The notes beneath the pieces are model-generated. The model saw only the letters and a program-made list of their open reading frames with translations, was not told where the DNA came from and did not search any database. Position numbers and translations under genes: made by a program. Source: Deltaproteobacteria bacterium (lineage in GTDB: Bacteria > Desulfobacterota > DSM-4660 > Desulfatiglandales > HGW-15). Taken from it: 21,549 bases of DNA. The first letter of the stretch is position 1. Each line of letters begins with the position of its first letter. Where the stretch lies: positions 1-21,549 of the forward strand of contig JAGUZM010000404.1 of NCBI GenBank assembly GCA_020060805.1, written 5' to 3'. Positions 3,295-18,572 of the stretch are shown here, in pieces.

Positions 3295-4119
3295 ATGGAA
3301 AGGAGGAGCGATTTCCTGTTGGCCGGCAAAACCATCCCATTCCCACAGCGGTCCACCGCCCAGGATATCATCCTGTTCGCCGTTGTGCTGGCGATAGCCA
3401 CCTGGGTCATGGTCCAGGGCACAACGCATCTCGGGTATCACTGGCAATGGTACAGGGTGCCCCAGTACCTCTTTACCCTGGAGGAGGGGCATTTTCGTCC
3501 GGGGCCGCTGCTGCAGGGGCTGATGGTGACTCTCAGGATTAGCGCTTTCAGTCTCCTCTTGACCCTTGCCTTCGGCCTGGTCACCGCACTGCTCCGGATA
3601 TCGAGTTCTTTCCTGGGCAGGACCTTGGCCCGGGGATACCTGGAAGTGATTCGAAACACCCCCCTTCTGGTGCAGCTTTTTGTCATCTATTTTGTCCTGT
3701 CGCCGATTCTCGACATCAGCCGCTTCGCCTCAGCCGTTCTCGCTCTCAGCCTGTTTGAAGGGGCTTACGCTTCGGAGATCTTCAGGGCCGGCATTCTCTC
3801 CATCCAGAGGGGTCAATGGGAGGCAGCGTACAGCCTCGGCCTCGGGAGCCTGAGCACGTACCGGCTGGTGATTCTCCCCCAGGCGGTGCGTCGTATTCTT
3901 CCTCCCCTGACGAGCCAGGCCATATCGCTCGTGAAAGACTCCGCCCTGGTGAGCACCATAGCGGTCTATGATCTGACCATGCGGGGCCAAGAGATTATCG
4001 CGGAGACTTATCTCGCTTTCGAGCTTTGGTTCACTGTCGCCGCGATGTACCTCTTCATCACCGTGACCCTTTCCATGGTGGTCCACAGGATGGAGGGGAG
4101 ACTGAAAGTGAAAACATAA
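3295..4119 (+). CDS. Amino-acid ABC transporter permease (polar amino acid / His-Glu-Gln-Arg family)
   Basis: ORF 3172..4119. The IRNTPLLVQLFVIYF segment and the EAA-loop region EAAYSLGLGSLSTYRLVILPQA are present. I prefer the in-frame ATG at 3295 because the N-terminus then aligns with its paralog at 5148 (LGYHWQWYRVPQYL versus LNYRWDWAAIPQYL). The exact start is uncertain. Confidence 0.85.
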   Translation: MERRSDFLLAGKTIPFPQRSTAQDIILFAVVLAIATWVMVQGTTHLGYHWQWYRVPQYLFTLEEGHFRPGPLLQGLMVTLRISAFSLLLTLAFGLVTALLRISSSFLGRTLARGYLEVIRNTPLLVQLFVIYFVLSPILDISRFASAVLALSLFEGAYASEIFRAGILSIQRGQWEAAYSLGLGSLSTYRLVILPQAVRRILPPLTSQAISLVKDSALVSTIAVYDLTMRGQEIIAETYLAFELWFTVAAMYLFITVTLSMVVHRMEGRLKVKT

Positions 4120-4190: not shown

Positions 4191-5024
4191 ATGAAAGCAC
4201 GATCGGCATGTTTCGTCGTTTTGTTCATCCTCAGCCTGCTCGTCATCCCCCTGGACCATGGTTCTGCGGCAAACGTAAGGCAGCAACTCACGGCGGACAG
4301 CACCCTGGAGCAGATTCTCAAGCGGGGCGTCCTGAAGGTGGGCATGTCCACATTCGTGCCATGGGCGATGCAAGACAAAACCGGGAAACTGATCGGGTTT
4401 GAGATCGATGTTGCCACGCGGCTTGCCAAGGATATGGGGGTCAAAGTGGAATTCGTTCCGACCAAATGGGCAGGAATCGTTCCCGCCCTTCTCACGGGCA
4501 AGTTTGACGTTATCATCGGGGGCATGGGCATTCTTCCTGAGCGCAACCTGAAGGTGAATTTCACCGTGCCCTATGACCACAGCGGGATGTCCATGGTGGC
4601 CAACAAGCAGGTTGCCCAAGGTTTCAAAAGCCTGGAGGATTTCAACCGGCCGGACGTGGTTCTGGCCGTGAGGTTGGGAGCAACGCCCGTGGCTGCGGCT
4701 CAGAAGTTCATGCCCAAGGCGCAACTCCGCAAGTTTGACGATGAGTCACAGGCCATGCAGGAACTGCTGAACGGCAAGGCCCACGCGGTCGTCGCCTCGG
4801 CGCCGATGCCCGCCTTCCAGGCCCTGAAGTATCCGGACAAGCTTTTCCTTCCCCTCCCGGAGACCTTTACCAGGGAGCCGATCGGCTTTGCTCTCAGAAA
4901 AGGGGATGTGGACACCCTCAACTTCTTCAACAACTGGATAACGGTCGTTCAGGCGGAGGGATGGCTGGCTGAGCGGAAGCACTACTGGTTCGAGACAACC
5001 GAATGGGAGTCTCTGATTAAATAG
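4191..5024 (+). CDS. Amino-acid ABC transporter periplasmic substrate-binding protein (family 3 SBP)
   Basis: A strong SD (AAAGGAAAGGAG) precedes the ATG. The signal peptide is MKARSACFVVLFILSLLVIPLDHGSA. Type-3 SBP motifs are present: LKVGMS..VPWAMQD, GFEIDVA, W..IVPALLTGKFDVIIGGM. Confidence 0.9.
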   Translation: MKARSACFVVLFILSLLVIPLDHGSAANVRQQLTADSTLEQILKRGVLKVGMSTFVPWAMQDKTGKLIGFEIDVATRLAKDMGVKVEFVPTKWAGIVPALLTGKFDVIIGGMGILPERNLKVNFTVPYDHSGMSMVANKQVAQGFKSLEDFNRPDVVLAVRLGATPVAAAQKFMPKAQLRKFDDESQAMQELLNGKAHAVVASAPMPAFQALKYPDKLFLPLPETFTREPIGFALRKGDVDTLNFFNNWITVVQAEGWLAERKHYWFETTEWESLIK

Positions 5025-8077: not shown

Positions 8078-8608
8078 TCACATCGGGACGAAGCTGTTGG
8101 CCTGAAAATAATCCTCCTTGAGCAACTGAAGCTGGTTCTTGAAGGCTTTGTAATGGTCCTCTTCCCAGGCTGCCAGCTCATGGTAGAAAGCCTTCACATC
8201 CGGGGAGTCCGCTTTGTCGGCACAGGACCTGTAGAACTTCATGGCGTCCTGTTCCAGCTTCATGCCGATGGTGAGGGCGCTCACCTCGAAATGGCTGCTC
8301 TTGATTCGGGATTCGATCTCCTTGCTGAAAATCGGGCCGACGCCGTGCTTGCGGGAGCTTTTTTTCAATTTCTTTTTCAAATCATAGTCCCCGGTGTCAA
8401 GCACAGACCGGTACTGATGCTGCAGGTAATGGAGGTGCCCCATTTCTTCCTGGGCCATTTTCGCAAAGGTCGCCTTTCCCTTCGGGTCCTTGGTGCTTTT
8501 GGCTGCGCTTTTATAGAACTCATGGCCCGTCAACTCCGCTTCAATCGCTGTCTTCAGGCCATCCAGAATTTTCTTTTTGCTCCTTTCCATGGTCAGCTCC
8601 TTGTTCAT
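8078..8608 (-). CDS. Ferritin-like / rubrerythrin-family diiron protein (no rubredoxin domain)
   Basis: Four helix motifs carry the E / ExxH ligand pattern: EAELTGHEFY, QEEMGHLHYL, KLEQDAMKFY, AWEEDHYKAF. Length is 176 aa. Confidence 0.8.
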   Translation of the reverse strand: MNKELTMERSKKKILDGLKTAIEAELTGHEFYKSAAKSTKDPKGKATFAKMAQEEMGHLHYLQHQYRSVLDTGDYDLKKKLKKSSRKHGVGPIFSKEIESRIKSSHFEVSALTIGMKLEQDAMKFYRSCADKADSPDVKAFYHELAAWEEDHYKAFKNQLQLLKEDYFQANSFVPM

Positions 8609-8759
8609 TCATCATCCCGTTTCGGGAGAGAGAAAACCTTTCTTACCCGGAAATGGGCTTTCGGCCCAGGGTTTTTTCGGGCAAGGGCATGACAGCGGAG
8701 GCTTCTCCAATCGCGCCCCTGCCCTTCACCGTCCTCCCCTCCGGCGATCGGAGTTATCC

Positions 8760-9092
8760 TTAAGAAAACTTCTCAGGCGGTCGCCGCTCGGGAACATATT
8801 GAATCGGGGTTTTTCCTTCATTCCACGCCTTCGAGACATAGAGATTGCAATAACAGCTCCCGAACTCCTTCACATCAGGCACCCGGTAGACGCAAGGGCA
8901 GATGATGTCCTGGTCTTTTAGACGGTCTCCTGACGAGAGCCTGCAAGGGCAACACATATACCCATAGCGTTTCCTGTTTTCGATCAACGAGGCCAGGAGG
9001 TCAAAAACCCTTTCCCTGTCTTTGTTGAAATAATAGCCCTTCGGTTCCTGAACCTTTTTCAGGTTCTCATACAGTTTCTCCACCTCGTTCAT
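8760..9092 (-). CDS. Ferredoxin:thioredoxin reductase catalytic (beta) subunit-like protein
   Basis: The Cys pattern CCPCR-x14-CPC-x13-CYC is the FTR catalytic-chain CPC...CPC...C(H/Y)C arrangement. Length is 110 aa. The start overlaps the upstream gene's stop (ATGA). Confidence 0.85.
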   Translation of the reverse strand: MNEVEKLYENLKKVQEPKGYYFNKDRERVFDLLASLIENRKRYGYMCCPCRLSSGDRLKDQDIICPCVYRVPDVKEFGSCYCNLYVSKAWNEGKTPIQYVPERRPPEKFS

Positions 9093-9340
9093 AGTCCGAG
9101 AGCCTCCTTGATCTCTTTCTCCTTGAAGCCCACGATGACCTTATCACCGATGATGATGGTGGGAAAAGAACACCGGGGGTTCAGTTTCCTCACGTCCTCC
9201 AGGATGGCGGTCCTCTCTTCGCCCTCGAGCATATCCACGTCCGTGAATTCGTACTTGACGGCGCATTCGTCCAGGAATTTCTTGGTCGCCTTGCAGTGAC
9301 TGCATGTGCTCAGCGTGTACATCTTGATGCTTTCTTTCAT
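9089..9340 (-). CDS. Glutaredoxin-like / small thioredoxin-fold protein (CSHC active site)
   Basis: The sequence is MKESIKMYTLSTCSHCKATKKFLDECAVKYEFTDVD...CSFPTIIIGDKVIVGF, which has the Grx/NrdH-like topology. The ATG at 9340 is preceded by AAAGGAG. The track ORF's N-terminal extension to 9427 overlaps the upstream gene and is rejected. Confidence 0.8.
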   Translation of the reverse strand: MKESIKMYTLSTCSHCKATKKFLDECAVKYEFTDVDMLEGEERTAILEDVRKLNPRCSFPTIIIGDKVIVGFKEKEIKEALGL

Positions 9341-9359
9341 CAGCGTCGCTCCTTTCTCG

Positions 9360-10193
9360 TCAGGCTTCGCCTTCCATGAGGCGACCCAGGGATGCAAGAT
9401 GCCTCTTTTCTTCTTCCCCAAGGTCATGAAAGACGGCCTTGCTACGATGGTCTTGGCTTTTCCGTGAATAACGCAGGTAGAGATCGAGGGCCTGGGTTTC
9501 GAGCATCATGGCGATACCCAGGACGTTTTCCCTAGTATTCATCGCTTCCTTATTCTGCTCCATGAACTCCTCGGTCGTGAATCCCCCTTCCATGAGTTTC
9601 GAAACGATGCGGGTTTCGAACTGCCCCTGATCCGTTACGGTCCTATCGAGGGTCTGATACAGGTTGAAGAGCTTTTGGCGGTGATTCTCTTCGATGCCGG
9701 CCAACCGTTTCAGAAGGCTTTTTACCTCTGGCTGAGGGGTGGTTTCCGCGATCGCGGTATACCACTCAGACAACCCGGTCTCCATGCCGTATGCAAGAAC
9801 CACCACCTCCGGCGGCTTTTCATCTCCCTTCAGGTAGGCCATTCCCATTTCCGCTGGGCCGAAGGCTGTTCGGCCCTGCCAGGCGGTAATGCCCCCTTTG
9901 AGGTTGTACACTTCCTTGAAGCCCTCACCGGCCAGGAGTTGCGCAGCAGCACGGCTGCGCGCGCCGGTGGCTCAGTACGCAATCACGGGTTTCTGGGGAT
10001 CGAGTTCCCCATTACGGTTGAGGAGCTCCGGCAAGGGGATCAAAACGGCCCCCGGGATGTGCGACTTTTCGTATTCAGAAGGCTGGCGAACGTCAAGAAG
10101 GGAATAGGTTCCTTCTTTGTGTGTATTGATGTAGGTTTTCGCCTCTTCGGCGTTCATGGTGTTGACGGGTGTGAAAAATTTCAACCACTTCAC
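9360..10193 (-). CDS. Rhodanese-domain sulfurtransferase fused to a ferritin-like domain; probable selenoprotein with UGA (9974-9972) at the catalytic Cys position
   Basis: Track ORFs 9972..10193 and 9360..9911 are in the same frame, separated only by one TGA. The read-through translation is ...LDPQKPVIAY-U-ATGARSRAAAQLLAGEGFKEVYNLKGGITAWQG. This is the rhodanese active-site loop (Y-C-x-x-G-x-R-S) with TGA in place of Cys. The C-terminal half carries E/ExxH motifs: YGMETGLSEWY, IEENHRQKL, MLETQALDLY, EEEKRHLASL. The GTG start at 10193 is preceded by AAGGGG 8 nt upstream. Confidence 0.75.
9928..9967 (-). promoter_or_regulatory. Candidate bacterial SECIS stem-loop downstream of the in-frame UGA
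   Basis: The minus-strand RNA is UGA GCCA CCGGC GC GCGCAGC-CGUGCU-GCUGCGC AACUCCUG GCCGG. It has a 7-bp apical stem with a 6-nt loop containing GU at about +23/+24 from the U of UGA, plus a 5-bp outer stem (CCGGC/GCCGG). Confidence 0.5.
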
Positions 10194-10640
10194 GACAGCA
10201 ACCCCTTGGCGTTCAATCGGTCATCGCCCCAGAACCTACTATGGGACGCCTGAAATCTCAAGCAAAACGTGGGCGAGGAAAGGGCGTTTCCTTTGGCGTG
10301 CCCGGTTTTGAAAATCAAGCAGCAATATAATCACTGGATCAGCGCCTACAACCCCTTCTGCTTAAACCCGGGGGAGTGGGCTGCGACCGATCGAGGGATA
10401 CCTTGTCAACCGCCCTGGCGGGGTTTAATATAGGGAAAGAATTAGCCCGGATCTTCGGTCCCACCAGCAGTACGGGGGATCCAGCTGCGAAGCTTGTCCA
10501 ATAACTCCCTCCTTAGAGGGAGAGGGGATTTGGGTTGTCGGGCAGCCTCCGTAACGTCCTTCGAGCGGTAAGGGGGCGCTGGGATCGCACCGGGGAAGCC
10601 CCGACAGAACCGATGATGCGGTGGGGAGGTGAATCATCTC

Positions 10641-11522
10641 ATGGAAAAAGTGGTCATAGAGGGAGTGGAACTGCACCTGACGCAGCCGGATGACGTTCCC
10701 ATGGTTTGGGTCGGCCAGGATGAGCTTGTCACCCAGGTCCTGGCAGCATGGCTCGTCATCGGCGACGATGATTTGCCCCTCCATCCGAGGCTCGTTGGAA
10801 AACCGGGCGTCGGCAAAACCACCCTGGCCTACCATGCGGGCCGTAAGCTCGGGAAACCGGTGTACCTTTACCAGGCGACGATGGACACGCGGCCGGAGGA
10901 CCTCATCGTGACCCCGGTGATCTCGGAAGCGGGCAAGATCAAGTACATGGCAAGCCCCATCGTTTCAGCCATGATCAAAGGGGGTGTGGCGGTCATCGAC
11001 GAAGGAAACAGGATGAGCGAGAAAAGCTGGGCCTCCCTCGCGCCGCTGATGGACAGCAGGCGCTACGTGGAATCCGTCGTTGCAGGAATCAAGATCAAAG
11101 CCCATCCCGAGTTCAGGCTCTGCACAACCATGAACGATGACGCCAGCACCTTTGAGCTTCCGGATTACATCCATTCGAGGCTCCAGCCGCAGATCTTCAT
11201 CGACTTTCCGGAAAGGGATGAAGAACTCCTCATCCTCAGGGCCAATCTGCCCTTTGCCGAGGAGGGGGTCCTGCAGTACGTGGTGGATTTTCTGCAGGCT
11301 GCCCATGAAATGGATGAGCGCTATTCGGTCAGGGACGGGATCAACATCGCCCGGTACGCCTTGAAAAGGCTTGTGGAGAGCGGCGAACGCCTCACCTCCC
11401 AGGAGCGGACGGAGAGGGTCGTTCAGTACATGAAAGAGGCTGCCACGATGATCCTGGATCCCAACGCCGCCCGGTATTTCAAGGACACGGTGGACTCCGG
11501 CGATGACGAAGAACAGGATTGA
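10641..11522 (+). CDS. AAA+ ATPase of the AAA_5 class (MoxR / CbbQ-NorQ / McrB-like)
   Basis: Walker A is GKPGVGKTT and Walker B is VAVIDEGNR. The sensor region is LCTTMN, and an arginine-rich helical lid follows. I prefer the ATG at 10641, with GGGGAGG 11 nt upstream. The track starts at GTG 10629. Confidence 0.85.
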   Translation: MEKVVIEGVELHLTQPDDVPMVWVGQDELVTQVLAAWLVIGDDDLPLHPRLVGKPGVGKTTLAYHAGRKLGKPVYLYQATMDTRPEDLIVTPVISEAGKIKYMASPIVSAMIKGGVAVIDEGNRMSEKSWASLAPLMDSRRYVESVVAGIKIKAHPEFRLCTTMNDDASTFELPDYIHSRLQPQIFIDFPERDEELLILRANLPFAEEGVLQYVVDFLQAAHEMDERYSVRDGINIARYALKRLVESGERLTSQERTERVVQYMKEAATMILDPNAARYFKDTVDSGDDEEQD

Positions 11523-13332
11523 GTGGAAAAACATCCGCTTTGTGCCTGTCCTTCACGGGCGGATGGAATTGGCCCTGGAGGTGAGGAGACAGTTCCGGGA
11601 GTTCAAGCCCGACCAAGTGGCGGTGGAATACCCCCATACCCTGCAGGACCAGATCCTTCGAGGAGTCAAGAGACTCCCCCTTCTCTCCGTTGTCTATTAT
11701 CAGGAGAGCGACGGCGCCTTCATTTACCTCCTTCTGGAGCCGACAGATCCGCTGGTGGAGGCTGTCAGGCTCGCCCTGGAAAACAACGTTCCGGTTCACT
11801 TCGTAGACCGGGACACGGAAGGCTATCCCCTTGATCGGTCCCCTATGCCTGACCCGTATGCGATCACCCGCATCGGTCATTACCTCTTCTGCCAGGCTTA
11901 CCTCAAGACCCGGGAGGGCGAGATGCCGTTCCTGGAAGACTCCCTCCGGGAGAAGACGATGGCCTACCATCTCCAGCGGCTGAACAGAGCAGGGGGGAAG
12001 ACCCTTTTCGTGGGCGGCCTGTACCACCTCCCCGGGATTCTTTCCAACATCGAAGGGCCCCAGGCGGAGGTAATCGGCAGGAAGCACAGGGAAGGGGCTG
12101 GACTGGCCCATCTACATCAGGACTCCAGCGCGGAAGTGTTGACAGAAATGCCCTTTCTGGTGGCAAGGTATGAGCGCTTCAGGGGTGCAGGGGGCGCGGA
12201 AGACCCTGACAGGCTCAAGGTTCATAACGAACTCATCGGCCTTGCCCGCAGGAGCCACTGGAAGAACAACAAAGAGGAATTATCCCGCCTTCAGGTCAGG
12301 ATCATGCACAAGTTTGCCAGGAACTATGCCCTTGTCACGGGCGGGCTGGTGCCCAGTTTCTACCAGCTCCTCGTGGCTGCCCGGGGAGCTGCGGATGACA
12401 ATTTTGCGTATGAACTTTGGGAAAAGGGGAGCGAATACCCGTGGCAGGCAGAGCAGCCCGGGCTGCCCATCATGCGCCTCAGCGGTGAGGATCTTTTCCT
12501 CGACCAGAAAAGGATACGATTCCACCGGAGGCTGAAGGCCTTCCGCAGGCGCCTGGTTCCGGTTCCCGTGAAGAAGAGGATAAGGGAGAAGACCCCGGGG
12601 GAATGGAAGAAAAGCTTCGACCACCTCTTCATCTGCTCTTATCCGCCCGAGGACGTGGTCGTGGAGGGTTACGGCCAATACCTCCAGAAAAAGGCCCTGG
12701 AGATCAAGTCTGAGGAGAACAGCCGGAGCGTTCCTTTTGTCAGTTCCATGATGGATGGGATCGATATCCGGGAGACCGTCAGGAACTGGGCCGAAGCGAA
12801 GATCTACGTGAAGGAGGGGAGGCCTATCCGGGGGAAGGTGGGATCCGTGGTCATGATTTTTGACCCTGACATGGCGGGAAAGGACGGGAAGGAAAATTTT
12901 CCCTGGAAGGTCACCTGGCTCGGTGAGCACGAACAGGAATCAGACATGGCTTTTTACAGCACCCCGGCCGGCGGCGTCATGGACGGGCCGGGTATTTCCC
13001 GGTGCCAGTACGGAGGCTTCATGCTCACCTATCCTCCGCTGAGGGTTTTGGATATATGGCAGGATCCCTTTTTCAACGTGGCGAGGAATAAACCGGAAAG
13101 GCTTCTCATGGCCGCCATAGACTACAGCGCGGAAAAACATGTGGTCTACGTCGCAGCCGACCCTCCCTCGGGATGGTGCCAGACCATGGCCGCGAAGCTG
13201 GGAAAGAAGATCATCTACATGCCCATCGGCGTTTTTTCTCCCGTGGCTCTGAAAAAGATCCGCCAGTTCCACGTCCTTGCCGGCCACCACGTCCGCAGGT
13301 ACGCCAAGCAGTACATCAAAACCGCCTCATGA
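11503..13332 (+). CDS. Large uncharacterised protein, DUF5682-like (partner of AAA_5 ATPases)
   Basis: 609-aa ORF whose ATG overlaps the ATPase gene's end by 20 nt, implying translational coupling. The N-terminus is IRFVPVLHGRMELALEVRRQFREFKPDQVAVEYP...EPTDPLVEAVRLALENNVPVHFVDRD. That resembles, from memory, the start of DUF5682 proteins found next to MoxR-like ATPases. The family call is tentative. Confidence 0.7.
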   Translation: MTKNRIEWKNIRFVPVLHGRMELALEVRRQFREFKPDQVAVEYPHTLQDQILRGVKRLPLLSVVYYQESDGAFIYLLLEPTDPLVEAVRLALENNVPVHFVDRDTEGYPLDRSPMPDPYAITRIGHYLFCQAYLKTREGEMPFLEDSLREKTMAYHLQRLNRAGGKTLFVGGLYHLPGILSNIEGPQAEVIGRKHREGAGLAHLHQDSSAEVLTEMPFLVARYERFRGAGGAEDPDRLKVHNELIGLARRSHWKNNKEELSRLQVRIMHKFARNYALVTGGLVPSFYQLLVAARGAADDNFAYELWEKGSEYPWQAEQPGLPIMRLSGEDLFLDQKRIRFHRRLKAFRRRLVPVPVKKRIREKTPGEWKKSFDHLFICSYPPEDVVVEGYGQYLQKKALEIKSEENSRSVPFVSSMMDGIDIRETVRNWAEAKIYVKEGRPIRGKVGSVVMIFDPDMAGKDGKENFPWKVTWLGEHEQESDMAFYSTPAGGVMDGPGISRCQYGGFMLTYPPLRVLDIWQDPFFNVARNKPERLLMAAIDYSAEKHVVYVAADPPSGWCQTMAAKLGKKIIYMPIGVFSPVALKKIRQFHVLAGHHVRRYAKQYIKTAS

Positions 13333-13349
13333 GCGGCGAAGTGTCCTGT

Positions 13350-13393
13350 CAAAAGTAGTGAGGTTTGCGAACAAAAGTAGTGAGGTTTGCGAA
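13350..13393 (+). repeat. Two perfect tandem 22-bp repeats (CAAAAGTAGTGAGGTTTGCGAA x2): putative transposase end-binding sites
   Basis: Copies at 13350-13371 and 13372-13393 are identical. They are immediately preceded by TGT at 13347. The 22-bp length, head-to-tail arrangement and ..TGCGAA(A/C)AAA core recall MuA/TnsB end sites. Confidence 0.7.
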
Positions 13394-13464
13394 AAGCACA
13401 GGAAATAAAAATCCTGTCCGATTTGGAGTTCAATCGGTCAGGTTTTGAGCCTCTGAAAAGGCCA

Positions 13465-13976: not shown

Positions 13977-15875
13977 CTAGACCAACTTAGCCTCCCTCAA
14001 CTCTACCAATATCCGGCTGCGACCATATTTGATTGCGCTGGCGAGGCCTTCATCGATTCGGCGTATAAGGTCTTCACTGCCTCCACCGGCGATATTAATG
14101 CTTCCAACGTCGAAATTCAAAATCATCCCGGCTGCCCCGCGCCCCATAGCCGCACCGCCGCTCACACCCTTCAGAACTTCGAACTGGGCTTCAAGAAGTT
14201 GCTTGCTTAGACCGTAGGCCTCTTTTTCTCCAGCGCCCGCATACATCCTGTAAGTCGTCACGTCGGTGAGAGGCCCGAAATCCCTGATCGCCCTGATCGT
14301 CGCCTGCATCGATGCTGTGAGGCTCGCTACTCCGGTAAGGTCGAGGGCATCCTGTATGACGCCACCTACACCCCGAAGGTCGTCCATCATTTCCTGTATC
14401 CCCACGGCCCAGGGCTTTGCAGGAGATTTCTTAATTTGAGGCTCGAACACGAAAGGATTCCGGCCCTCCTCCGCCGCCATGTAGTCAAAAAATTGGGCTG
14501 TACTCTGTGTCGCCTGAGCGATGCTCTCGCTTGCGTTTTGAGCAGCCTCCTGGATCGAATTGATAGTATCGACCACCTTCTCAGCGGCTGCCGAATAAGA
14601 TCCAGGCTGTGAAATAGGCATTCTCACAAAAGGACCTCCGGTCTCCGATGTGCTTTCTATCCCAGAAAGAAGCCTCTTCAGTTCAGGGAAATTGGAAAAC
14701 GCATACTCGCTCAAGCTCAGCTTTCCTGCCGCTACCGCCTGTGCTCCCTTGACCGAATTCTGTACTGCCTCGATGAGATGAAGTCCTGCTCCAAAAACAG
14801 CAAGCCCTTTTTTGCCGAATACGATTGCTGCTACAACTCCTCCCTCCTGAATCCACCCAGGAAGCGATTGAAACGTTTTATAAAGCTCTTCGCCTTTCGT
14901 TATTATTTTCGGCAGATACCTATCCGCGATGTCCGCCAATGAACCCACCGTCCTCACCAATCCCTTCGCCAAATCCAAGATCTCGTCAGCAGTCTTTTTT
15001 GCCCACTCTTGAAGTTTCCCTTCCGAATGAAGTTTATCCACCCGATCCACAACGCCTGCGAGGAAGGTTTCTAGTGACTTCATGACACCGGATTTCATCA
15101 CGAGGCGCTCAAACTCAGTCCAGTAGCTTTTGAGGCTCTCGGTCATTCCCGACCACGTCTTTTGTATCTTCTCTGACTGTCCACCGTAACGCTCCTGCAG
15201 ACCTTCGAATATTGCCTGCACTGCCGCCTTTGCGTTCAGGCTCGACGTCTCCACCTCGCCGAATTTCTTTTTTAGAATGTCGAACACCGGGACACCACGC
15301 TCTGCGAGCTGCATCAGCTCTTCTGCGCTCACCTTTCCTTTCGTGGCAATTTGCGCGAGAGCCCTGGCGATGCCCTGTAAAGTCTCTTCCGTGCCGCCCA
15401 ATGCGCTCATCGTATCGACAAGAATCGTCATCTGCTTAGTGGTTGGATCAAGCCCCATCGCCTTCATCATGATGAAGGTCTCAACCGCCTTCTGGGTATT
15501 CACAGGCATTTTGAGAGCCCACTCATTTAGCATCCTGAAGGTTTCTTCACCTTTCCCTTTTGTAAGAGTGTCAAGGCTGAGCGTCATCTTGTCGAACGAA
15601 GCAGCCGTGTTTACAAAACCAGAGGCAATCCGTTCTAGACGCCATCCCACAAAGGCCGTGGCCGCTATAGTTTTAAGGTTCACAAGCGACTTCCTGACTT
15701 CGCCGATCCTGCCCTTCACACCATCAAAGAGATTCTGGACCCGTTGCAGCCCAGGAGCGGCGCTTGTCCCGACCCCGGAAAGGTTCTTCGATGCGCCGTC
15801 GGTAAACTTCTTGATGTCAGCAAGGGCCTTGTCCACAGCGGCTTTCACGATGATCTCGACCGTATTCTCAGGCAT
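13977..15875 (-). CDS. Phage tail tape-measure protein
   Basis: 632 aa, Ala/Gly/Gln-rich and helical. The N-terminal tape-measure core is FDKMTLSLDTL...EETFRMLNEWALKMPVNTQKAVETFIMMKAMGLDP...TLQGIARALAQIATKGKVSAEELMQLAERGVPVFDILKKKFG. The SD GGGAGGA precedes the ATG. Confidence 0.8.
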   Translation of the reverse strand: MPENTVEIIVKAAVDKALADIKKFTDGASKNLSGVGTSAAPGLQRVQNLFDGVKGRIGEVRKSLVNLKTIAATAFVGWRLERIASGFVNTAASFDKMTLSLDTLTKGKGEETFRMLNEWALKMPVNTQKAVETFIMMKAMGLDPTTKQMTILVDTMSALGGTEETLQGIARALAQIATKGKVSAEELMQLAERGVPVFDILKKKFGEVETSSLNAKAAVQAIFEGLQERYGGQSEKIQKTWSGMTESLKSYWTEFERLVMKSGVMKSLETFLAGVVDRVDKLHSEGKLQEWAKKTADEILDLAKGLVRTVGSLADIADRYLPKIITKGEELYKTFQSLPGWIQEGGVVAAIVFGKKGLAVFGAGLHLIEAVQNSVKGAQAVAAGKLSLSEYAFSNFPELKRLLSGIESTSETGGPFVRMPISQPGSYSAAAEKVVDTINSIQEAAQNASESIAQATQSTAQFFDYMAAEEGRNPFVFEPQIKKSPAKPWAVGIQEMMDDLRGVGGVIQDALDLTGVASLTASMQATIRAIRDFGPLTDVTTYRMYAGAGEKEAYGLSKQLLEAQFEVLKGVSGGAAMGRGAAGMILNFDVGSINIAGGGSEDLIRRIDEGLASAIKYGRSRILVELREAKLV

Positions 15876-15901: not shown

Positions 15902-16267
15902 TCAGAGTGGCTTGTAACATCCTCTCACCCTTCTTCTCATGCACAGGCTACAGATATACCACTCGTTATTAAGCTCTTGCCCATCCATAATTCCGAGCAT
16001 CTCAAAAGCCCATCTATCCGCCGCCAACTCTTCCGCCTCATCTGGCCCATCGAACTTGTTAATGAGAACGTGCTTTATTTCGTGGAACAGAACGAAAAAA
16101 GCTAAATATGGGCACTTCAGGTTGTGTGGAGAGATGAGGATTCGGAAACTGCCGTCGCGGAATCTGTGCGCTTCCCCGGCATGATTGTTTTCTAGGTCGC
16201 AGACCATCACGTATCTGATACTTTGGCAATGGTCTTTTGCAATAGAAGTCAGGAAGTCATTTATCAT
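15902..16267 (-). CDS. Small HExxH zinc-metallopeptidase-like protein (ImmA/IrrE M78-like or SprT-like; family ambiguous)
   Basis: FVLFHEIKHVL is followed by EAEELAADRWAFEML, which is like the HExxH...E-x-x-A-N-x-F-A motif of ImmA/IrrE. The C-terminal Y-x-C-x-x-C is also seen in SprT-like proteins. Confidence 0.6.
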   Translation of the reverse strand: MINDFLTSIAKDHCQSIRYVMVCDLENNHAGEAHRFRDGSFRILISPHNLKCPYLAFFVLFHEIKHVLINKFDGPDEAEELAADRWAFEMLGIMDGQELNNEWYICSLCMRRRVRGCYKPL

Positions 16268-18177: not shown

Positions 18178-18283
18178 AAAGCCCAATTGTGCGTGAGATC
18201 CCCTTCGGGGACTTCCTGAGAACCCCTCCGAGGATTTTCTGAGATCCTGCCCAAGGACCTCATGACCGCAACAATTGGGCTTT
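18178..18283 (-). ncRNA. Structured intergenic RNA element / attenuator-terminator candidate inside the element
   Basis: A 13-bp helix pairs AAAGCCCAATTGT (18178-18190) with ACAATTGGGCTTT (18271-18283), plus GCG/CGC across a bulged A. It encloses ~75 nt containing a TCCCC-TTC-GGGGA hairpin (18199-18211), an AGGAT/ATCCT hairpin (18231-18248) and a repeated TGAGATCC. On the minus strand the 3' arm runs straight into UUUUUUGUU and then the SD and ATG of the next gene. Confidence 0.45.
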
Positions 18284-18347
18284 ACTTTACGACTAAACTA
18301 CCCGGCAACTGCAGACCGTCAGCTACCGACCACAACACAGTTAAACT

Positions 18348-18572
18348 TTACTCGCGACCATGTCCCTCCACTTCCGCGACCATGTCCCTCCACTTCTGAA
18401 GTTCTGAGACTATGCCGGTGAACTCCCACAAAAACCAGCTTGCCTCTCTGTTCGCTTTCATGACCCGCTTATAGTCGAACAATGGAATGCTATCCACTTT
18501 TGCACGCAACTCATCTAACCACGCGGGATTGACATACCTAAATTTCTCGCCTCTGGGCCTCTTCGTTTTCAT
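18348..18572 (-). CDS. Hypothetical protein (74 aa)
   Basis: A strong SD, AAGGAGGTGA, lies 5 nt upstream of the ATG at 18572. The last 15 codons are encoded by the 22-bp tandem duplication. Confidence 0.55.
   Translation of the reverse strand: MKTKRPRGEKFRYVNPAWLDELRAKVDSIPLFDYKRVMKANREASWFLWEFTGIVSELQKWRDMVAEVEGHGRE
18353..18396. repeat. Perfect tandem duplication, 2 x 22 bp (CGCGACCATGTCCCTCCACTTC)
   Basis: Copies at 18353-18374 and 18375-18396 are identical. Because 22 is not a multiple of 3, the two copies are read in different frames: KWRDMVA and then EVEGHGR. Confidence 0.9.

Follow-up and report, generated by a model that had tools for sequence, protein, structure and literature searches.

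A tandem 22-bp repeat as the probable right end of a compact Mu/B3-type transposable element in a Deltaproteobacteria genome

Genes and features of the locus

The window, that is the whole stretch of DNA that was analysed (21,549 nucleotides), lies on contig C626 of the source MAG (G000), an assembly of 627 contigs with an estimated contamination of 7.9%. A second contig of this assembly, C291 (L001), also bears part of the element described here.

The left part of the window carries ordinary cellular genes. The last of these encodes a 609-aa protein and stops with a TGA at 13330-13332, which is followed, after a gap of 14 bp (13333-13346), by a TGT and by two head-to-tail copies (R1 and R2) of the 22-bp unit CAAAAGTAGTGAGGTTTGCGAA, with no mismatch between them (Table 1). 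From 13465 to the end of the contig all genes are placed on the minus strand and constitute a Mu-like gene set. Since host genes are found to the left and this gene set to the right, the repeats mark the boundary between host and element. The sequence-only reading of this DNA had given the stop codon, the 14 bp, the TGT and the two perfect 22-bp repeats at these same positions, and all its coordinates were correct when checked directly on the sequence.

The gene encoding the 162-aa protein is also kept as the last gene in related elements. The only virion genes detected in the window element are those for the capsid-like and the tape-measure-like proteins. No TnsA, TniQ/TnsD, CRISPR effector or resolvase/recombinase was found among the element proteins using Pfam and PHROGs, and scans for Rfam families and tRNAs gave no matches. 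Every gene of the element is single-copy in the assembly.

A second perfect 2 x 22-bp tandem repeat was observed within the element at 18353-18396. Placed at the 3' end of an ORF of 74 aa on the minus strand (about 18349-18570), it shifts the reading frame and looks like a recent duplication. In addition, a long hairpin at 18183-18290 on the minus strand (GCCCAATTGT ... ACAATTGGGC, then a T-run) encloses 23-bp repeats at 18194-18244. It has no Rfam match and may act as an internal terminator or represent a small RNA.

Table 1. Features of the element and its flanks; positions are those of the window unless a contig is named.
Feature	Position	Strand	Remarks
Host gene, 609 aa	11503..13332	+	no family hit; stop codon just before the insertion; conserved in 33 of the 40 relatives searched
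Right copy of the 6-bp flanking direct repeat, candidate target-site duplication	13341..13346		GTGTCC on the plus strand, GGACAC in element orientation
Terminal TGT	13347..13349		ACA-3' on the coding strand of the element; same in 11/11 aligned ends; putative cleavage/joining point
R1, first 22-bp repeat of transposase-binding type (predicted)	13350..13371		core GTGAGGTTT at element positions 13-21, CGAA at 22-25
R2, second 22-bp repeat (predicted site)	13372..13393		identical to R1; core at positions 35-43, CGAA at 44-47
Predicted terminator of the element operon	13403..13442	-	stem CCUGaCCGAUU ... AAUCGGaCAGG, then AUUUUUAUUU
Last gene, 162 aa	13465..13953	-	two Cys-rich zinc-ribbon-like motifs, basic linker, C-terminal strand-helix-helix, ribbon-helix-helix-like
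Tape-measure-like protein, 632 aa	13977..15875	-	virion-type gene
121-aa protein	15902..16267	-	weak metalloprotease-like match
Major-capsid-like protein, 391 aa	16351..17526	-	Phage_capsid_4
Two small ORFs, 103 and 96 aa	17579..18186	-	no family hit
Helix-turn-helix regulator, 153 aa	18577..19038	-	conserved in all related elements
MuB/TniB-like AAA+ ATPase, 258 aa	19038..19814	-	AAA_22/TniB; phrog_296 at 3e-37
DDE transposase, 588 aa	19807..21549	-	rve + Mu-transpos_C; phrog_310 at 4e-67; start just past the window on the contig
Left copy of the flanking direct repeat	C291:3292-3297		GGACAC; abuts the left TGT
Nested IS ends	L001 (G000:C291) 4662-4766; G000:C626 21565-21592		TGTCACCACCGATGAAGAA and its imperfect inverse; the second just past the end of the window

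The probable right terminus

Tandem Repeats Finder, applied to 13350-13393, reported a period of 22 with 2.0 copies, 100% matches and a score of 88. With up to 3 mismatches allowed, the 22-bp unit is present in the window at the positions of R1 and R2 only, and no match was obtained in dinucleotide-preserving shuffles (0/100). An identical host-element junction is found in the sequence JGI 3300037880 (4,644 nt, two samples), the single mismatch of which is distant, at 15105; local misassembly at the junction is therefore unlikely.

With the T at 13347 as position 1, the two CGAA blocks begin at 22 and 44. The first of these offsets had already been proposed, and counting verified it, together with the remark that CGAAAA of the Mu L1 site begins at the same position. 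The L1 sequence given there is correct, as CGAAAA does start at position 22 of AF083977, but L1 is not the best analogy. In the same record CGAAA begins at position 22 of the Mu right end and CGAAAA at 44, with an inverted R3 after them, and since the window has CGAA at both positions the apt comparison is with Mu R1-R2. An inverted R3-like core is absent from the window.

Between R2 and the last gene, the earlier reading had recognized two short hairpins, ACAGGA/TCCTGT at 13398-13417 and CCGATT/AATCGG at 13418-13437, and had guessed that they end transcription of the element operon. Both are present and correspond to the minimum-energy fold of the minus-strand RNA, and a role in termination is in line with what we observed. 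Their description as two separate hairpins is the part that we would change: they are most simply read as one long interrupted stem which, with the U-run, would form the operon terminator. The relatives have a homologous single stem (CCUGaCUGAUU ... AAUCAGaCAGG) and a U-run directly inside R2.

A degenerate third site had also been suggested at 13437-13449. It was rejected as a right-end site, since GTCAGG in this segment is the complement of the 5' arm of the terminator stem. The conservation of GTCAGG in relatives is explained by its being part of that stem, and it is therefore not counted as a transposase site.

The opposite end and the nested IS

The boundary reading predicted a related repeat at the opposite end of the element, and one was found on contig C291. 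There a TGT at 3298 is followed by 9 nt and by TGAGGTTT-AGGAA, so that the GTGAGGTTT core and the AGGAA after it stand in the same register as at the right end in the window. We designate this putative site L1 (C291:3298-3322). Two further copies of the core, L2 and L3, are located at 3419-3440 and 3453-3474 (+122 and +156) in the orientation opposite to L1. Genome-wide, copies related to the 22-bp unit exist on C291 only, apart from chance-like matches with 5 mismatches on C39 and C619; isolated core matches on C619 and C373 also look like chance. Moreover, the pattern GTGAGGTTTNNGAA, which has 12 specified bases, occurs six times in the 5-Mb genome and five of these occurrences are at the two ends of the element.

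The hexamer GGACAC abuts the left TGT and is repeated, in element orientation, next to the right one (Table 1). A 5-bp duplication was considered for the window element and rejected: with TGT/ACA ends only 6 bp match. Outside the left end, C291 carries host genes of the SpoVR family and then a 156-aa gene, which precedes the TGT at 3298. Inward of the left-end sites are genes for a MerR-type regulator, a Ner-like helix-turn-helix protein and a 108-aa helix-turn-helix protein, and the counterparts of these three genes in relatives directly precede the transposase.

C291 and C626 each break off at one of the two inverted ends of the same multi-copy IS, which is bordered by a duplication of 7 bp, AGGAGAC. 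Three other contigs (C339, C82 and C528, at whose tips the IS end was also found) end in the same 98 nt as C291, a stretch that begins with TGTCACCACCGATGAAGAA; on C626, the first 21 nt past the transposase start are an imperfect inverted copy of TGTCACCACCGATGAAGAA. The body of the IS is absent from the assembly. This multi-copy IS, inserted between the gene for the 108-aa protein and that for the transposase, physically links C291 to C626 and accounts for the break of the assembly between the two contigs. When the flanks are joined without the IS, the 108-aa protein regains a C-terminus homologous to that of the same-genus relative, and the element without the IS measures 9,589 bp. An early promoter-like site is present at C291:3572-3600. 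The IS is now placed between this site and the transposase genes, for which reason the window copy of the element may be silent.

The host locus in related genomes

No precise empty site was found among 40 relatives: the host gene of the right flank occurs in 33 of them, always with different downstream neighbours. The left flank was recovered from the same-genus genome G001 and, in part, from G022, and from no other relative. If 13347-13393 belongs to the element, relatives without the element should also be without this sequence. Seven relatives have the host gene and no element, and the 22-mer lies downstream of the gene in none of the seven.

In G001 (L006, G001:C297, 2460-2900), the orthologue of the 156-aa host gene has the right end of a related element on its downstream side, in the orientation opposite to that in G000. 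A MITE-like insert of about 310 bp with inverted ends AAACGTTCAAAAG separates the orthologue from this right end. Two independent insertions beside the 156-aa gene, in G000 and G001, would not be expected if transposition were near-random.

Related elements

Searches with the transposase revealed relatives in the same-genus genome G001, in the same-order genome G050 and in several metagenome/assembly contigs. A profile search with the transposase alignment found no relatives in viral contigs; in genome contigs it returned two, both of which had been found before. Three of the relatives are complete and all have TGT...ACA ends: that of G050 (9,541 bp, flanked by the 5-bp CCACA), that of L035 on a 1.47-Mb contig (8,847 bp, flanked by the 5-bp CATAT) and that of L037 (9,192 bp, flanked by the 6-bp GCATGC). 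The left end of the G050 element was placed at L023:3658 by alignment with L027 and L033. The left end of the element of G001 was not found in the G001 assembly.

Six right and five left ends from seven elements were aligned. The host flanks are unrelated and the similarity starts exactly at TGT, with TGT, T13, G17 and T18 invariant in the 11 ends. At all six right ends a second core occurs 21-23 bp further in, and five related elements share the whole register of TGT, core at about 14-20 and second core 21-23 bp on. Specific to the left ends (5/5) is a G-run at positions 4-12, which the right ends do not have. L2 and L3 have the opposite orientation to L1 in G000, G050, L027, L033, L035, L037 and the second element of L026.

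The identity between R1 and R2 is 22/22 in the window element and 18/21 in L035; the others have 13-16 identical positions of 22-23, with 13/22 in G001. The spacing between TGT and terminator in G001 equals that of the window element. This unchanged spacing leads us to infer replacement of R1 by sequence of the R2 type, without the gain of a copy. The other perfect 22-bp duplication, at 18353-18396, suggests that the identity of R1 and R2 may partly reflect a local tendency to duplication or conversion.

All four complete elements have flanking repeats of 5-6 bp. These candidate target-site duplications cannot reasonably be due to chance, each having a chance probability of about 1 in 1000. 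Their length is 6 bp in two of the complete elements and 5 bp in the other two, and one enzyme family need not give both.

The early region and the last gene are shared across the family, and the middle varies. Virion-type cargo consists of capsid-like and tape-measure-like genes in the window, a capsid-like gene in L037, a protease-like gene in L035, scaffold-like and tape-measure-like genes in G050 and a tape-measure-like gene in L036. GemA is encoded in two relatives. The four complete copies, from several Thermodesulfobacteriota assemblies, span only 8.8-9.6 kb.

Some arrangements in individual relatives were also recorded. In L026 (7740-8360) two related elements are placed head to tail, the right terminus of the first abutting the L1-like core of the second. 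The L1 of this second element is without its first 8 bases or so and without the TGT, and has the inverted L2/L3 at the usual distance; the arrangement looks like an insertion into, or right beside, the end of a resident element. The elements of L023 (3600-3660, G050) and L027 (600-657) lie at the same position, where one and the same gene for a small membrane protein begins. The two transposases share only 75% identity, which points either to long vertical residence or to a site preference. Directly after the family member in L036, at 8164-12843, are genes for an Mrr-like nuclease, an OLD-family ATPase/TOPRIM protein and a UvrD-type helicase, including a Gabija-like pair. These genes may be cargo or neighbours of that element.

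The transposase and its affinities

In a phmmer search against the PDB, the transposase matched TnsB of type V-K CAST with an E value of 1e-22 over residues 38-433, a stretch that includes all three acidic motif positions (D191, D261 and E297, window numbering). The similarity to MuA is weak (pairwise E 0.005). The predicted transposase is thus closer to TnsB than to MuA. Its D-to-E spacing of about 35 residues and the candidate 6-bp repeat fit the B3/Tn552 branch of the transposable-phage transposases.

Interpretation of the element and alternative explanations

We consider, with a probability of about 0.88, that a Mu/B3-type transposable element of 9.6 kb has its right end at 13347-13393. 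The original proposal, an element terminus with tandem predicted transposase sites, is supported by the opposite end with its TGT and core in register, by the GGACAC flank and the IS link, by the register shared among relatives and by the transposase and ATPase genes. The predicted element is of Mu/B3 type in its ends, enzymes and regulators; its size and its gene content are not those of a transposable phage.

The same end could also belong to a non-phage transposon of the Tn7, Tn5053 or Tn552 type that took up phage-derived cargo. In that case the element would never have gone through a phage life cycle, and the 22-mers would be sites of the TnsB/TniA type. The transposase is far nearer to CAST TnsB than to MuA and has the D-to-E spacing of TnsB and Tn552-type enzymes, the ATPase matches TniB, and the left ends begin TGTGGG-like, as Tn7 ends also do. 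However, TnsA, TniQ/TnsD and resolvase families are lacking among the element proteins, so that by gene content this is not a transposon of any of the three types. In addition, the early region has the layout of Mu (repressor, Ner-like helix-turn-helix protein, transposase, ATPase), with GemA in two relatives, and one or two virion-type genes are present in every family member. Within the phage collection the nearest transposases are those of complete Mu-like phages, and the asymmetric layout, with L1, a gap and a site pair on the left and a tandem pair on the right, is that of Mu. For these reasons we regard the non-phage transposon as unlikely.

The two remaining explanations concern the repeat itself. 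It is very improbable that the tandem 22-mer is a recent slippage duplication, or an array for binding a regulator such as the 162-aa protein, that came to lie near the edge by accident. The second perfect 22-bp duplication in the element, and the fact that R1 and R2 are identical here and share only 13 of 22 positions in the same-genus relative, would favour such an origin. Against it, nothing has been added between TGT and terminator in comparison with that relative, the two-core layout with its 21-23-bp step keeps the same register in 6/6 right ends, the opposite terminus is marked by the same core, and the near-perfect tandem of L035 stands on a 1.47-Mb contig. An assembly artefact, either a spurious repeat or a chimeric junction, might be feared in a MAG as fragmented as this one, with the contamination given above. 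It is hardly credible here, given the identical junction of JGI 3300037880 in two samples and the recurrence of the architecture in independent assemblies from other sources, the 1.47-Mb contig included.

With the repeats read as the right end of a Mu/B3-type element, a mechanism can be proposed by analogy. The DDE transposase of the element would bind the tandem 22-bp sites R1 and R2 and also the single terminal site L1, and both ends would be paired in a transpososome. Nicking would take place at the terminal CA-3' (TGT seen from outside), and the ends would be joined to a target cut with a stagger of 5 or 6 bp. The adjacent MuB-like ATPase probably helps to choose the target, and the hairpin and U-run inside R2 would halt transcription of the element operon before it reaches the end.

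Comparison with known systems

Transposable phages are characterized by TG-CA ends, by target duplications of 5 bp (Mu) or 6 bp (B3/Tn552-type) and by genomes of 36-39 kb (PMC8705779). The window element resembles Mu in its terminal TG/CA, in the two adjacent right-end sites 22 bp apart, in the positions of the CGAA blocks, in its asymmetric ends (a lone L1, a gap and then a site pair), in the short flanking target duplication and in having the gene for an AAA+ partner after the transposase gene. It differs from Mu in that the sites are unlike in sequence outside the CGAA block, R1 equals R2, no inverted R3 is present in the window element and L2/L3 are inverted relative to L1, whereas in Mu they are direct. 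Moreover, the flanking repeat is 6 bp and not 5 bp, the length is 9.6 kb against about 37 kb, and the transposase is barely alignable to MuA and has no hit to the Mu-type enhancer-binding domain.

The closest transposase in the phage collection is that of Shewanella phage vB_SspS_MuM16-1 (MZ568827), with 27% identity. This phage also has TGT at both ends, two GTGAG-type cores about 21 bp apart at the right end, a left end consisting of L1, a gap and two further sites, and, as last gene, one encoding a small zinc-ribbon nucleic-acid-binding protein. In contrast to the window element, its core starts at 19 instead of 13, its L2/L3 face in the same direction as L1 and it is a full phage of 37.9 kb. 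The inner left-end sites of the window element are thus inverted unlike those of both Mu and MuM16-1, which argues that the left-end complex would not simply be copied from Mu.

With the B3/Tn552 group the element shares TG-CA ends and a 6-bp target duplication (PMC8705779), as well as a transposase of the D, D, 35-residue, E type, as deduced from the alignment. Two family members differ from this group by their 5-bp repeats, and B3 is a full-size phage. No clear repeat sites were recognized at the deposited ends of the B3 record.

Type V-K CAST TnsB (PDB 7svw, 8rdu, 8aa5) is the best relative of the transposase among solved structures. The termini of Tn7-like and CAST elements are also TGT, with arrays of roughly 20-bp TnsB sites. 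The window element differs from them in being without TnsA, TniQ and CRISPR effector, in having phage-type regulators and virion genes as neighbours and in its inverted left-end sites.

The laboratory mini-Mu is a short element between Mu-type L and R ends, some versions of which carry the A and B genes. The window element is likewise short with L and R ends of this type, but its family is natural and recurs at 8.8-9.6 kb with varied cargo. Compared with a full transposable phage, it has only 9,589 bp and is without complete head, tail, packaging and lysis modules.

What is distinctive about the predicted element is therefore a combination of features, namely Mu-type asymmetric ends with a TnsB-like enzyme, identical R1 and R2, inverted inner left sites, a left-end G-run and compact size.

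A possible satellite way of life and significance

The members of the family keep the TnsB-like transposase, the MuB-like ATPase, the regulators and the zinc-ribbon last gene, and each carries no more than one or two genes for virion remodelling (capsid, protease-like, scaffold-like or tape-measure-like). Their narrow span of 8.8-9.6 kb, together with the one or two virion-type genes of each member, suggests a satellite way of life. We are tempted to propose, tentatively and as the less probable side of the question, that these elements of sulfate-reducer-like Thermodesulfobacteriota, about 9-9.6 kb long, form a previously undescribed family of self-transposing phage satellites. No integrase is present in the element, and its mobility would depend on the DDE transposase, unlike that of P4-like, PICI, cfPICI and PLE satellites, which integrate at specific sites by an integrase and rely on a helper phage for their particles. 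None of the papers searched dealt with natural satellites of transposable phages. If the satellite reading is true, the narrow size range would reflect packaging in the particles of a helper phage, and the G-run of L1 and the inverted L2/L3 would reflect a left-end complex built unlike that of Mu.

With the termini, the flanking duplication and the nested IS in place, the structure can be described as an element complete at 9,589 bp and not as a vague prophage remnant, and the exact ends allow a family of similar compact elements to be delimited. The ends also indicate that a Mu-style asymmetric layout, with a lone L1 and a tandem R1-R2, may be used by a TnsB-like transposase, with inverted inner left sites. 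Provided that these sites function, they would belong to a compact and self-contained transposition system from anaerobic Thermodesulfobacteriota. Such a system could serve as a mini-transposon tool made of a right end of about 50 bp, a left end of about 180 bp and two proteins, and would offer a way to test natural mini-Mu elements as phage satellites.
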